UHGV virus genome: UHGV-0140686
Length of the DNA stretch: 50,702 nucleotides
Source: a virus
Reading direction: 5' to 3' (one strand)
Shown: one piece after another, positions 24,001-30,000 of the stretch
Layout of the letters: each line of letters opens with the position of its first letter
Position numbering within the stretch: position 1 is the first letter of the stretch
Program-made: the position numbers

Positions 24001-27000
24001 TGCGTTGATGTTTTATCAACGTCGCGGTTCCCGGCATCGCCCAGGAATTTCCGTACTTGCTTATGTGCTTGTGCTGATTTACGCGAGCATTCCCTTCCAG
24101 TTTATCTTCGGTCTTTACGTACAGTCCCACTGGCTGGTGGTACTGGCAAACATCCTTATCTGCGCCGCCGTGCTGTGGGCACGGGGTAACGTGGCGCGCC
24201 TGGTCGATACACTGAGGCACTAATGAATCAATCACAATTTCAGCAGGCGGCTGGTATCAGCGCCGGCTTAGCTGCGCGCTGGTATCCGCATATCACTGCA
24301 GCAATGAAAGAATTCGGCATTACGGCGCCTGTCGACCAGGCGATGTTTATTGCTCAGGTCGGGCATGAAAGCGTCGGGTTTACCCAACTGGTGGAGAGTT
24401 TCAATTACAGCGTTACCGGGCTGGCGGGATTTGTGCGCGCCGGGCGACTGACGCAGGACCAGGCCAATTCCCTCGGACGCCGGCAGGGTGAGCCGTCACT
24501 ACCGCTTGCGCGCCAGCGGGCGATCGCCAACCTTGCCTACAACAAAAGGAATGGCAACAAAGGCCCTGGTGATGGCTGGCTATATCGTGGCCGTGGTCTT
24601 ATCCATATCACCGGACTGACGAATTACCGGGATTGCGGGACCGGGTTGAAGGTCGATCTGGTGGTCCAGCCTGAACTACTGGCGCAGGACGAATACGCGG
24701 CACGAAGTGCGGCCTGGTTTTATGCCAGTAAGGGCTGCCTGAAATATCCCGGTGACCTGGTCCGCGTCACCCTGATTATCAACGGCGGGCAGAACGGAGT
24801 TGATGATCGGCGTGCCCGTTTCCTGAAGGCAAAATCGGTATTGGTGGGGTAACTATGGGAATCGAAACTATTGCCGGGCTGGTGTTTGTCCTGCTGGGCG
24901 TTATCGCTAGCGCGTTCGGTATTGGTCATGCCCGCGGTACCAGTAAAGCCGAAGAAAAAGCCAAGCAGCAACGCACTGAAGAAAACGCCGCTGCTACTGT
25001 CGCCGCGGCAGAACGCCGGGCTGATGCAACGAAAGGGGCCAGCGATGTACAGCAGACTGTTAGCCATATGCCTGATGACGATGTTGATAGGGAGCTGCGC
25101 GAAAGATTTACCCGCCCCGGTGGTGGTTGATACCGCGTGCAGTTGGGTGCGGATCATCTACCTGACCGACCACGATATCGATGTGCTGGATAAGCAGACC
25201 AAGCGCGACATTCTGGCGCACAACAAATCAGTGCTGGCGAACTGCCCATAACCAACCGAAAAGGCTACGAAATGATTGCAACCATAGGAACCATTATCGT
25301 TTGGGCGCTCATTGTTGTGGGTGGCGCTGTAGGGTTGTTGTGCGCATTAATCGGGCTTATGTTCATCATCAACTTTCCCATGCGCTAACCCCACGAAGGG
25401 ATAACCCAACAGCTATCCCCACCCGAGGATACAGCCATGAAGAATTAAAGCGGATAGACCGCAGTCGAAAGGCAGAGCAGCAGTAATGATGCTGCCCCGA
25501 GTCGCGTAATGGCGAGCAGGTATAGCAGACCGTTGTGAGGGTAAATAAGGGAACATGCTCCGGTAAAGAAGCGCGAATGCCAGACGCGCACTAGTTATAA
25601 GCGGCGATGATGTGGCAGCTACTCAAGGGCATGAGCGTGGCCACTCCGGGAAGTGGCAAAGCATTGCAGGAGCCATTCACCAGGTGGCGGCCCTAATATA
25701 TTTTGTTAGAATAACCTCATAACTAATGTGAGGTGGATATGGATGCTAGTTATATAGCTTATGAAACGCTTGTGGCTAATCGCAATGCAGCTGAGTGGGC
25801 GTTTTGGTCAATGATTGCTGCATTTATTAGTGGCACTGCAAGCGTAGTCACTTTGATTTTTGCTTATAGAGCCCTGACAACCTGGCGAGAGCAAGAAAAA
25901 ACAAAAGTAAAAATGGAGTTTAGATTTGCGATCAAACAATTAAGAGTCGCCTTGTTAAATATGCCACTAAACCTTGACCGAGATGAACTTGAGGAAGAGA
26001 GGGAGCAGGTTATTGTGAGGTGGCTTTTTAAAGATGTCGATCTCATAAGTCAGCAGATAGATGCTGGAGAGCAGAATGTGCAGAGATTTGATAACCTTCT
26101 TAGCATCTTTGACGCCTGCCAATCGTCTTGGCTTGCTACTGAGCACTTATTTGATGGGACTCAACTTGCTAGAGACTGGATAATACTCGAAGACGACTTT
26201 GAACATTATATCAATGGAGAAGGGACTAAGGCACCATTAGTGCAGTTGCTTAATAAAATAACATCTTCACGATTTGTCTTTGATTCAAAATAATCACTGC
26301 CCTGCAATTTATTTAGATATTAAAAAGGCCACCCACAGGTGGTTTTTTTAATGGCACTTCAGAAACCATTCCGAATAGTGATTTTGATAATGCTCCCCAC
26401 ATCGCATAGAGGAAAGACAGACATGGCAGACATCACACTAGCAGAACAAATACGCCTGAACTTGCTTTCAATCCTGAACTACGATACAGCAGCAGCTGCT
26501 AAGGCTATTGCATTCGTACAGGACAGTCAGTTGAAATATCAGATTTTCATCCAGCAGTACAACCGGGTTGTAACCGAATCTGAAGTGGTTGCAAAGACCA
26601 TCAAAGCGATTCAGGAAGCCACCGAAGCGCTGGCGCTGTTTGATACAGCCTCAGAGCAGATTAGCTAGTAAAGCAGAATAGGCACTCTATGAGTGCCTAT
26701 GATAATATCAATTCTGTTTTATTATTAAAACTCTTGACTCTGTCATTGTTGTTCTGGAGTCAACGCTATATATCCTTTATCAATAAGTGATGATATTATT
26801 TCTTCGAAAACTTTTTTCCCCCGGTATTCGTTTTCGGTCTTGCAAATATAATCGCTTGAGAAAACATTTTTCACGATATAGCCGTCGTGCGTTATGAATA
26901 TTTTTAATACAGAGTGAAATGTATCATCTTCTCTAAAAAAGAAATGCATTTCTATACACGAAGCAACAATCGGTGGGAAGTCATAAAGCTTTAGAGACTC

Positions 27001-30000
27001 TTTGCATTCAAGTTTTAAATTGAAATGTGAGAGGTCGATGGTGAGGTTATTCTCTATAATAGAAGCCGATGCTGCTGTGCTTACTAAATCATTGTTGTTG
27101 ATATAAGATATTAATTTGTTTTTTAAGTTTAATGTTGAGCTTATCTCCGTGCAGCATTCATTTTTTATATTTGAAAATACTTTGTAAACATTTTCAATTT
27201 CCATAATTGTCCTTATTGCTGTACTTAGTTTTCATTAAGCGTCTTGGGGTAATGTGTCAGTTATACCAAAGACAAAAATCATGTTTCAATTAATATAAGA
27301 GGATAGCCTAAGGTGACTATTAAGAGTAAACTTAATCATATAACCTTTTTAAATTAAAGTTAGAAACATAAGAAGTAATTTTTATAAGAGGTAAGCGAAT
27401 TAATGTATTCCAATAAGATTAGCGAACCTCGTATTTACGGCAGCAAATGGGACCGTGAACGTCTTATCTTCCTTCGTGCGCACCCCTTGTGCGTCCTGTG
27501 CCAGGAGCAAGGCAGGGTGACAGCGGCAACGGTGGTTGACCACATCATCCCGCATAAACTGAAAGAAGCTCTTCGCTCTGGTGACAGTCAGGCAATAGCG
27601 AAGGCGCAAAAACTTTTCTGGAGCCGGAAGAACTGGCAAGGGCTGTGTAAGCAGCACCACGACTCAACGAAGCAGCGAATGGAGAAGCGTGGCACCGTGA
27701 TCGGCTGCGATGAAAACGGGATGCCACTGGACCCGGCTTCTCATTGGTTTAAGGGATAACCATTATCAATACACTTCAAAAGTGATTGTCATTTAAAATC
27801 ATTATCATTCGAATGATATCGACTCTCATCTGAGGGGGGAGGGGCGGGTCAAAAGTTCAGAACCTTGAACCTAAATGACCGCCGCCCATCCTTTTTGTAC
27901 AAAACCGCGAAATGAAAAGATTTTTTCTGGGAGGTTCCGATGGCAGGACGACGCCCGAAACCGACCCATCTCAAAGTGGTCTCCGGCAACCCGGGTAAAC
28001 GTAAACTCAACGATAAAGAACCGACTCCGGCGCGAGAAATTCCAAGCCCGCCGGCGCACCTGACCGACTGGGGAAAGGTTGCCTGGGGAAGGTTGACGGT
28101 TCTCCTTGACGGGATGGGGGTGCTAACGGTTGCCGACACCTTAGCCCTTGAACGGCTATGCGATATTTACGCTGATATCCTTCAGTTGCGCGACACCATC
28201 GCAGTAGAGGGAAGAACCTATACCGTCCAGACCGAGGGTGGTTTTCTTATCAAAGCTAACCCGGCCGTTTCGATGCTGGCCGATGCCGACCGCCGTTTTA
28301 AAAGTTACCTGGTTGAATTCGGTCTGACGCCAGCGGCAAGGACGAAGGTGAAAGTGAATGGCGAAGACCCCGAAGAGGACACGCTCGACAAGTTCTTCGG
28401 TTGATCCTGCAACCCAATATGCGATGGATGTAACCTCGGGAAAAGAACTGGCAGGGCCTGACATCCGTAACTCGTGCCAGCGCCATCTCAACGACCTGAA
28501 GTCATGTCACGCTCGTGGTCTGCACTGGGATGTTGAGGCGGCGCAACGCTCGATTGATTATTTTGCGAAAGTTCTGAAGCTCAATGGTGGCGATTTCGAA
28601 GGCAAGCCTTTCGTGTTGCTGCCATGGCAGTGCTTCATCGTCGGTTCGATTTATGGCTGGAAAAAAGCCAGCGGTTTTCGCCGGTTCCGAATGGCCTATG
28701 TGGAGTCCGGGAAGGGATCCGGCAAATCCCCCCTGTCTGCCGGGATAGGGCTTTACTGTCTAACGGCGGATAAAGAGCCTCGTGCTGAAGTGTATGCTGC
28801 GGCCACGAAAAAAGACCAGGCAATGGTTCTCTTCCGTGATGCGGTGGCGATGGTCGATCAGTCACCGGCTCTTTCCGCGCGCATTCATAAATCTGGTGGC
28901 GCCGGGAAAGAGTGGAACCTGGCTTTTCTTCAGGCAGGTTCCTTCTTTCGTCCAATCAGTTCTGATGATGGGCAGTCCGGCCCGCGACCACATTGCGCTC
29001 TTATTGATGAAGTTCACGAGCATAAAAGCAATCAGGTTGTTGAAATGATGCGTGCCGGTACCAAAGGCCGCCGGCAGGCGCTGATTTTCATGATCACAAA
29101 CAGTGGACACGATAAAACCAGCGTCTGCTATGACTATCACGAATACGGTCGAAAGGTTTCTGCCGGTTCGATAGATGATGATAGCTTTTTTGCCTTCATC
29201 TGTTCTCTGGATGAAGGGGACGATCCTTTCAAGGATGAGTCCTGCTGGAAGAAAGCTAACCCTTCGCTGGGTCACACCTTTGAAGAAAGCTATCTTCGTG
29301 AGCAGGTGACTCAGGCCCGCGGGATGCCATCGAAAGAGAGCATCGTCAGACGTCTTAACTTCTGTCAGTGGGTTGACGCGGCTAATCCGTGGATGAGCAG
29401 TGATGTCTGGATGGGTTGTGAGGAAAGCTTTGATCCAGATGAACTGGAAGGCGAGGAATGCTATGGCGGTCTGGACCTGTCCGGATCGCGTGATTTGACT
29501 GCACTGGCGTTGTTTTTTCCAAAACAACGTAAGTTGCTGGTGGAGTTCTGGACCCCGAAAGATACGTTGCTGGAACGGGCGAAAACGGACCGGGTACCTT
29601 ATGACGCCTGGGAGCGCGATGGTCACATCCACACCACACCTGGTAAAGCGGTGAAATACGGCTTTGTTGCCCAGCGCATTGCAGATCTGACTCAGAAGTT
29701 TGATATCAAGGCCATCGCCTTCGACCAGTATCGTATTAAATACCTTGAGCCGGAGCTAGAGGAGGCATCTGTTTCTGTTCCCTTAATTCCTCACGGGCAA
29801 GGGTATTACAAAGCGAAAGATTCCGGGCTGTGGATGCCTCACTCGATCGAGTTGTTCGAGGAGTTGCTCGATGACAGCGTCATTATCATCAGGACAAACC
29901 CTTGCCTTCGCTGGAATGCAGCGTCAGCAGTGACGGAGGCTGATCAGAAAGAAAACCGAATTTTTGCAAAGAAAAAGAGTACAGGACGCATCGACGGCAT

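Follow-up and report, generated by a model that had tools for sequence, protein, structure and literature searches.

Candidate moron ORF3 in the lysis-packaging gap of a lambdoid Klebsiella prophage

UHGV virus genome UHGV-0140686 was analyzed as one stretch of 50,702 nucleotides (the window). It contained a lambdoid prophage in which the late genes, from the holins through terL, were all on the plus strand, as judged by open reading frame (ORF) calls and Pfam and PHROG matches. A 1466-bp stretch with three ORFs (ORF1, ORF2, and ORF3) was located between its Rz/Rz1 genes and its packaging genes. The prophage is an HK97-like lambdoid Klebsiella prophage (P27-type terS plus an HNH endonuclease gene), and this region is its accessory-gene zone, which separates the lysis cassette from the packaging genes. 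ORF3 is the most interesting part of the region, an uncharacterised and probable prophage moron (an additional gene that brings its own signals for expression) in an already known cargo zone. Comparison with relatives indicated that the low-GC stretch consists of three independently assorting modules and not of the single three-gene island described in the initial annotation. The reading that we favored, with roughly even confidence, was that ORF3 is a defence or competition moron expressed in the lysogen, that ORF1 encodes a membrane accessory protein, and that ORF2, a DUF2560 gene, belongs to the late backbone. Our confidence in the architecture was high: the three-ORF stretch is real and well delimited, and ORF calls and folding confirmed the ORFs, the terminator, and the hairpin where they had been placed.

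ORF3 and its expression signals

The 1466-bp stretch had a guanine-plus-cytosine (GC) content of 38.3%, compared with 50.8% for the window, which put it in the bottom 1% of windows of that size, and the GC minimum of the whole window fell within it. Thus, the stretch was indeed below the prophage average, as had been proposed. At the level of single genes, the atypical base composition of a moron was found in ORF3 (31.8%) and ORF1 (40.4%), whereas the DUF2560 gene was only mildly GC poor (46.7%). The spacer at 27205-27402 had a GC content of 27.8%. GC contents of 30-37% were observed everywhere in the ORF3 family, compared with 50-53% for the backbones.

ORF3 aside, no plausible antisense gene was found across the late genes (23.5-47.8 kb), and ORF3 was located 200 nt before the HNH and terS genes. 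When the window was compared to Klebsiella phage ST147-VIM1phi7.2 (L013) via blastn, homology stopped at 26706 and restarted at 27424. In the L013 phage, the DUF2560 gene was followed by the hairpin and then by the ribosome-binding site and start codon of the HNH gene, all within 55-67 nt. The ORF3 cassette was missing in this phage and in about 18 loci with an empty slot, in which the DUF2560 gene abutted the HNH gene (a gap of 55-67 nt); similarly, the ORF1 cassette was missing in E. coli phage vB_EcoS-733R5 (L014). Of the 17 loci with ORF3, 16 had a DUF2560-to-HNH gap of 737-757 nt; the gap was 1938 nt in the other one (L012), where an insertion sequence (IS) element was also inserted. The remaining slots contained unrelated small genes.

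At least 375 IMG/VR stretches contained a relative of the DUF2560 gene, and 80 DUF2560-anchored loci were kept for comparison. ORF3 was present in 4 of the 80, and 3 of these 4 loci contained the ORF1-DUF2560-ORF3 trio; the DUF2560 gene was kept in relatives with or without ORF1 and ORF3. Based on presence and absence in ST147-VIM1phi7.2, vB_EcoS-733R5, and the 80 IMG/VR loci, ORF1 and ORF3 are separately acquired cargo and the DUF2560 gene is a backbone late gene.

The suggestion that the gene with very low GC has a promoter region of its own agreed with a predicted extended -10 promoter that was conserved in Klebsiella (Table 1). The -10 hexamer was located at 27265-27260, the predicted transcription start was near 27253, and the promoter was 55-61 nt before the ATG. 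Its TTGGTATAA sequence was invariant in an alignment of four Klebsiella loci, a 70%-identical lineage included. Our promoter scan missed this site because it accepts only -10 hexamers whose sixth base is T. In the case of the ribosome-binding site, the distant homologues had a similar purine-rich sequence (AAGGA or AAGGT) before the gene. The in silico signals of the moron type that flanked ORF3 were therefore the conserved promoter and a 10-bp hairpin with a weak U-tract, and those flanking ORF1 were a strong terminator and no promoter-like site. Present or absent in close relatives, located on the opposite strand, and equipped with its own conserved promoter and an atypical composition, ORF3 looks like a textbook moron.

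No match to ORF3 was found in Pfam, PHROG, NCBIfam, or PADLOC; PDB sequence and profile searches yielded chance-level matches only, and a tblastn search of 50,697 deposited phage genome records gave no match to ORF3. A word-indexed search of 5.8 billion proteins identified five clusters of homologues, all from Klebsiella, and an exhaustive profile/hidden Markov model search of 1.84 billion representatives identified eight, which added Pantoea, Enterobacter, Cronobacter, and Leclercia. Judging by these searches, the ORF3 family is tiny (13 clusters) and restricted to Enterobacterales. Its members were 150-158 amino acids (aa) long throughout, and the 13-sequence alignment contained nine invariant positions: the start Met, K72, F88, D107, I120, C121, N125, G129, and L140.

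In every context that was read, ORF3-family members were located between lysis and terminase genes and were antisense to the late genes. These contexts were 12 Klebsiella loci, Cronobacter phages (Terminase_2/Terminase_3), a Pantoea phage (P27 terS plus HNH), and a contig with a Hendrixvirinae-type terS. Even members with only 22-41% identity (Cronobacter, Pantoea, and the unassigned contig) shared the antisense position, whatever the terminase type. We also observed that the distant ORF3 homologue in the Pantoea locus (L100, 3788-5844) and in the unassigned locus (L101, 3738-5776) was followed, toward the terminase, by a conserved late-strand pair of family-less genes encoding 485 aa and about 200 aa.

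The ratio of nonsynonymous to synonymous substitutions (dN/dS) was 0.11-0.20 for ORF3, with the out-of-frame comparison of the window to locus L017 left out. This indicated purifying selection, and therefore that ORF3 is a real protein-coding gene. Long chance ORFs are common in AT-rich DNA and ORF3 homologues are very few, as would be expected if the ORFs were chance or decaying frames in AT-rich junk between modules. That explanation is effectively refuted, and we gave it hardly any probability: dN/dS was low for ORF3 and for ORF1 (0.13), the ribosome-binding site was conserved, ORF3 homologues down to 22% identity held the same length and invariant residues, and the structural model of ORF1 was confident.

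The AlphaFold2 (AF2) model of ORF3, which was built from only five near-identical sequences and had a predicted local distance difference test score of 61.7, contained helices, a six-stranded sheet, and a C-terminal helix. No signal peptide, lipobox, or transmembrane segment was detected by inspection of the sequence (N-terminus MEIENVYKVFSNIKNECC...), and library scans detected no DNA-binding or known regulator domain. These results argue against a role of ORF3 in lysogenic conversion, in which it would change host physiology or virulence, for example as a regulator or a small-molecule-binding protein. Moreover, the family was confined to the phage lysis-packaging gap in several genera and different lifestyles, which is better fitted by a phage-directed role, and we considered a conversion factor unlikely.

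Table 1. Positions of the features discussed (window coordinates unless a locus is named)
Feature	Position	Strand	Basis
ORF3, 153 aa, predicted cytoplasmic alpha/beta protein, unannotated family	26743-27204	-	ORF call; AF2 model
ORF3 cassette: gene, 5' untranslated region, promoter, AT-rich spacer, first 21 nt of HNH gene	26707-27423	-	blastn versus L013
ORF3 ribosome-binding site AAGGA	27210-27214	-	conserved 5-6 nt before ATG in all Klebsiella homologue loci
Predicted ORF3 promoter: TTGAAA, 18-nt spacer, extended -10 TGgTATAAC	27260-27289	-	alignment conservation
ORF2 (DUF2560 gene), 81 aa, conserved late backbone gene	26423-26668	+	PF10834; PHROG 571
10-bp hairpin plus GATAAT, recurring module junction	26678-26706		fold; conservation
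GAGTGSCYNYGATAAT copies	26691-26706; L014 3281-3296 and 3592-3607; phi80 (L102) 4321-4336		motif match
ORF1, 184 aa, PHROG 6169	25739-26293	+	ORF call; PHROG match
ORF1 cassette: AT-rich leader, ORF1, terminator	25689-26353	+	blastn versus L014
Intrinsic terminator 3' of ORF1: stem, plus-strand U7 tail	26318-26353		fold energy; terminator scan
Two holins	23560-24223	+	late gene order
GH19 endolysin	24223-24852	+	late gene order
Rz/Rz1	24855-25251	+	late gene order
HNH endonuclease gene, terminase-associated, right backbone flank	27403-27759	+	PHROG 2323, E = 3e-51
P27-family terS	27940-28404	+	downstream of HNH
terL	28358-30094	+	downstream of terS

The DUF2560 gene, ORF1, and the cargo slot

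The ORF2 product was a full-length DUF2560 member; residues 3-73 matched positions 2-72 of the 72-position PF10834 model with 64.1 bits (cut-off 25), and the match to PHROG 571 had an E value of 2e-29. ORF1 matched PHROG 6169, a function-less family, with an E value of 7.5e-56 (profile positions 2-164 of 165). Hence, the statement that none of the three genes has a recognisable family stood for ORF3 and had to be dropped for ORF1 and ORF2. A literature search for the function of the DUF2560 family found the name mentioned in passing only. A dedicated partnership of DUF2560 with ORF3 was rejected, since DUF2560 mostly occurs without ORF3 and the distant ORF3 homologues occur without DUF2560.

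The hairpin at 26678-26700 had a perfect 10-bp stem (about -15 kcal/mol on either strand, z about -4.2), with no U-tract on the plus strand and a weak one on the minus strand. It had been interpreted as insulating the three genes. An insulator that arrived with the cargo was not supported: the same hairpin was kept, with compensatory changes, in phages without ORF3 and belongs to the backbone. Read on the minus strand, it would serve as the 3' stem-loop of ORF3.

The 3' arm of the hairpin plus GATAAT, GAGTGSCYNYGATAAT, bracketed the DUF2560 gene on both sides, with the copies 311 nt apart, in many loci. The ORF3 cassette began directly after one copy. The ORF1 cassette split the site that is occupied by the other copy in relatives, and at that place the window had only a diverged hairpin and GATAAT. 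As to function, the hairpin-GATAAT motif might mark a recombination junction, a site of processing, or a promoter. As separate observations, GAGTGSCYNYGATAAT was also the 3' end of a structured RNA element upstream of ORF1 (described below), and the 5' arm of the hairpin formed a weak promoter-like site (TAGGCA-N16-GATAAT) with the GATAAT motif.

The ORF1 product was membrane anchored, as had been proposed, with 184 aa instead of the 185 aa first given. Its model, which was confident, had a single transmembrane segment at about residues 20-44 and a C-terminal domain that was entirely helical, a four-helix bundle; searches of the PDB by sequence and by profile yielded chance-level matches only. 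ORF1 is probably an inner-membrane protein with an N-out/C-in topology, as a K/R-rich flank after the transmembrane segment, noted by inspection, suggested that the C-terminus is cytoplasmic. The first ~45 residues, with 45-68% identity, were common to proteins with unrelated C-terminal domains (P0022-P0027 and the slot-B gene in L074), and a profile search with this shared module gave short fragments only.

In the blastn comparison to vB_EcoS-733R5, homology broke at 25688 and restarted at 26354. The TTGATAATGCTCCCCACATCGC sequence after the ORF1 cassette was the usual DUF2560 leader, which elsewhere was found directly 3' of the terminal hairpin of the RNA element. The terminator after ORF1 had a fold energy of -18.1 kcal/mol on the plus strand (z = -4.05) and -11.8 kcal/mol on the minus strand, and an A-run was located upstream of its stem. 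In form, this terminator was thus bidirectional, as described earlier.

ORF1 homologues and N-terminal variants were always on the late strand between lysis and terminase genes, just downstream of the spanin genes. This position, together with the small single-pass membrane protein that ORF1 encodes, is consistent with a lysis accessory such as an antiholin, a lysis-timing factor, or a spanin-associated factor. However, ORF1 was missing in close relatives with the same lysis cassette (L001-L012), and ORF1 or its variants accompanied three or more unrelated holin/endolysin/spanin sets (as well as Terminase_2, Sf6-type, lambda Nu1/GpA, and P27 terminases), so ORF1 cannot be tuned to one holin. 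Given also that it has its own terminator, 40% GC, and no match to a lysis-category PHROG, we considered a lysis accessory very unlikely.

The Rz1-to-DUF2560 slot ranged from 112 to 2828 nt across 66 related loci, and its cargo included Acb2/Tad1 (anti-CBASS/Thoeris), YfbU, DUF2513, IS elements, and many unknowns. Candidate defence cargo was found in this slot in L060 (956-2585), L062 (1702-3422), and L005 (a gene at 6933-7712). The slot contents of relatives included a Beta_protein (PF14350) with a 190-aa partner, which matched PADLOC 'beta'/PD-Lambda-2_C and 'cll'; a DUF6575 protein with a 143-aa partner, which weakly matched PD-T4-10 B/A; and an Abi_alpha protein that matched PADLOC PDC-S47. 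For the locus, then, the idea of a lysis-packaging hotspot was supported, as relatives carry both defence and anti-defence cargo. Examination of the same slot in related prophages, a check that had been suggested at the outset, showed that ORF1 and ORF3 are present or absent and that defence-type cargo is found in the neighboring slot.

The Acb2/Tad1, Abi_alpha (PDC-S47), PD-Lambda-2-like, and PD-T4-10-like genes occupied the same variable slot with the same flanking genes, but ORF1, ORF2, and ORF3 had no sequence similarity to them. None of the 5027 PADLOC-DB v2 models matched the three ORFs at E values up to 1, and no known defence, anti-defence, toxin, lysis, or structural family matched. 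Clear homology to structural or lysis families had been named as a finding that would speak against defence or conversion cargo, and none of the three proteins showed it. Position and architecture suggest a possible defence or conversion function for these genes.

Genes of the Acb2_Tad1_hairpin family (PF24729) were present on the late strand of the Rz1-to-DUF2560 slot in many relatives. ORF1 was also on the late strand with no promoter of its own detected, and it, and perhaps ORF3, might act in counter-defence as the Acb2/Tad1 sponges do. No match to PF24729 or to another anti-defence family was found for ORF1, ORF2, or ORF3; the same scan did detect PF24729 in genes that occupy the slot in relatives. 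In addition, ORF1 is membrane anchored whereas the known sponges are soluble, and ORF3 runs against the lytic transcript, whereas a gene needed in lytic growth would be expected to run with it. We therefore considered counter-defence quite unlikely.

Proposed role of ORF3 and the comparison with phi80 tai

According to He et al. 2024 (PMC11364771), Tai defence genes in phages are located 'predominantly upstream of the packaging module'. In phage phi80, taiEcA is an antisense gene within the late operon that Q controls; the lysogen expresses it, and Q expression lowers its level. The adjacent late-strand gene atiEcA neutralises taiEcA, and this arrangement was named a 'noncontiguous operon' (PMC11364771). 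The order on the phi80 map was Rz/Rz1, a terminator, rha (plus strand), tai (minus strand), ati (plus strand), and cos. Like ORF3, phi80 tai is a single antisense gene within the late operon, placed after Rz/Rz1 and ahead of the packaging genes, beside a small late-strand gene, and the hairpin-GATAAT motif is located just beyond its 3' end, as it is at ORF3. There were also differences: ORF3 is 153 aa and TaiEcA 204 aa, and the DUF2560 gene converges on ORF3 instead of diverging from it and is found without ORF3 in most cases.

Two candidates were rejected in this comparison. ORF3 as a Tai family member was rejected because the hhalign probability was 5.6% when the 13-sequence ORF3 profile was compared to phi80 orf63 (TaiEcA; 57 homologues), and position alone agreed. 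A cognate Ati-type late-strand partner for ORF3 was rejected because the DUF2560 protein had no AtiEcA alignment and ORF3 was found in few of the DUF2560-anchored loci. Plausibly, ORF3 works like Tai in its regulatory logic and is not a member of the Tai family.

The lambda bor gene is antisense between Rz and the packaging end. Like bor and the Hendrix-type morons (HK97 gp15), ORF3 is an extra gene in some relatives, with an atypical composition and its own promoter and stem-loop, between backbone genes. ORF3 matched neither the Bor nor the gp15 family in Pfam and PHROG, and with a predicted cytoplasmic location and no signal peptide, lipobox, or transmembrane segment, it is not a Bor-type lipoprotein.

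In the explanation that we propose, ORF3 would be a moron that interrupts the Q-dependent late operon in antisense, with its own extended -10 sigma-70 promoter and ribosome-binding site and with its end at a pre-existing backbone hairpin. By analogy with phi80 tai/ati, ORF3 would be transcribed from the repressed prophage, and convergent late transcription would damp its expression once the phage turns lytic. The product, predicted to be a small cytoplasmic alpha/beta protein without a catalytic signature, would bind a protein, most probably one of a competing phage, and ORF3 would thereby be a single-gene prophage defence or competition factor. In the case of ORF1, the late-strand cassette would provide an inner-membrane protein as a membrane-level accessory made late in infection; superinfection exclusion or entry blocking would be its most likely role, with counter-defence and lysis modulation as rivals. 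Both cassettes would have been inserted at the hairpin-GATAAT junctions that bracket the DUF2560 gene. We infer the expression timing and all functions of ORF1, ORF3, and the DUF2560 gene in this explanation.

Several observations weigh against it. ORF3 showed no homology to TaiEcA, and no alignment was found between DUF2560 and AtiEcA. The ORF3 promoter is a consensus match that is conserved in Klebsiella only, and the Cronobacter copy of ORF3 is 45 nt from terS and has no equivalent promoter motif. The invariant Cys-Asn-Gly stretch (C121, N125, and G129) could be an active or ligand-binding site instead of part of a protein-binding surface. No PADLOC model matched ORF3, and the slot also carries anti-defence cargo (Acb2), so position alone cannot separate defence from counter-defence. 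Finally, the promoter scan found no promoter-like site before ORF1, which may be a purely late gene; this would suit anti-defence or lysis roles as well as exclusion.

We put our confidence in a defence function at about one in three. A broader proposal is that the ORF3 family is a previously unrecognised single-gene prophage anti-phage or competition system with a new fold-level identity, which would be regulated purely through its antisense position in the late operon, would represent a second, independently evolved 'noncontiguous operon', and would be inserted at hairpin-GATAAT exchange points for cargo in the lysis-packaging gap of enterobacterial lambdoid phages. We regard this proposal as less likely than not.

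Neighboring elements and implications for prophage cargo

A non-coding element of ~230 nt was located immediately upstream of the ORF1 cassette on the plus strand (25431-25690, up to 25386-25700). Unannotated DNA with 80-87% identity to it was found in phage mEp213, Stx2c phages, a Hafnia phage, and 79 E. coli genomes, and its 17-mer core was present in at least 120 IMG/VR contigs. We collected 83 copies (77 after realignment) that were <96% identical to each other (median between pairs of copies, 77.5%). Compensatory change was extensive in several helices: the two partner bases had both changed in 14-39 sequences per pair in one hairpin and in 6-30 in another, and a long-range helix (CCCGAGU / ACUCAAGGG) closed a multi-branch core. 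A Shine-Dalgarno-like site and a mini-ORF of 1-3 codons were found at the start of the element.

Copies of the element were located after Rz1, in the cI-like-to-N-like gap or PL-to-N leader (mEp213), and in the Q-like-to-holin gap, and they were always co-oriented with transcription. The element had no match in Rfam 15, a literature search with its core sequence gave no match, and an Rfam scan within the three-ORF stretch gave a chance snoRNA match only. Judging by the alignment, it looks like a widespread, covarying structured RNA that is undescribed; ideas for its role so far are a cis-acting leader, an antitermination or stability element, or a small RNA (sRNA).

Two further sites in the late region contained small ORFs. 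A very hydrophobic 38-aa ORF (MIATIGTIIVWALIVVGGAVGLLCALIGLMFIINFPMR) was located immediately 3' of Rz1 on the plus strand (25272-25388); it was kept at 87-89% in L057 and L074, independent of the RNA element, and was uncalled in related loci. It may encode a small membrane peptide that is lysis-related or toxin-like. A second antisense ORF of 130 aa (22731-23123, minus strand) was located between the Q region and the holins, directly after an Rfam match to the STnc100 sRNA (72 bits; 22545-22731, plus strand) and downstream of a tRNA at 21532-21604. Relatives had other antisense ORFs of 152-159 aa at this place, and the Q-to-holin site may be another moron slot.

Morons of the lysis-packaging gap are a productive source of phage-defence and counter-defence proteins, as illustrated by Tai (PMC11364771) and by Acb2 in the slot of relatives here. 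If ORF1 and ORF3 prove to have no phenotype, the region would be ordinary mosaic filler. ORF3 is a compact, testable candidate, a single 153-aa gene with a predicted native promoter, and natural pairs of ORF3-plus and ORF3-minus prophages exist. Resistance encoded by prophages bears on phage therapy in Klebsiella pneumoniae, in which ORF3 occurs. The comparative map turns a vague hotspot into defined slots with defined junction motifs, and these slots could be mined for cargo.

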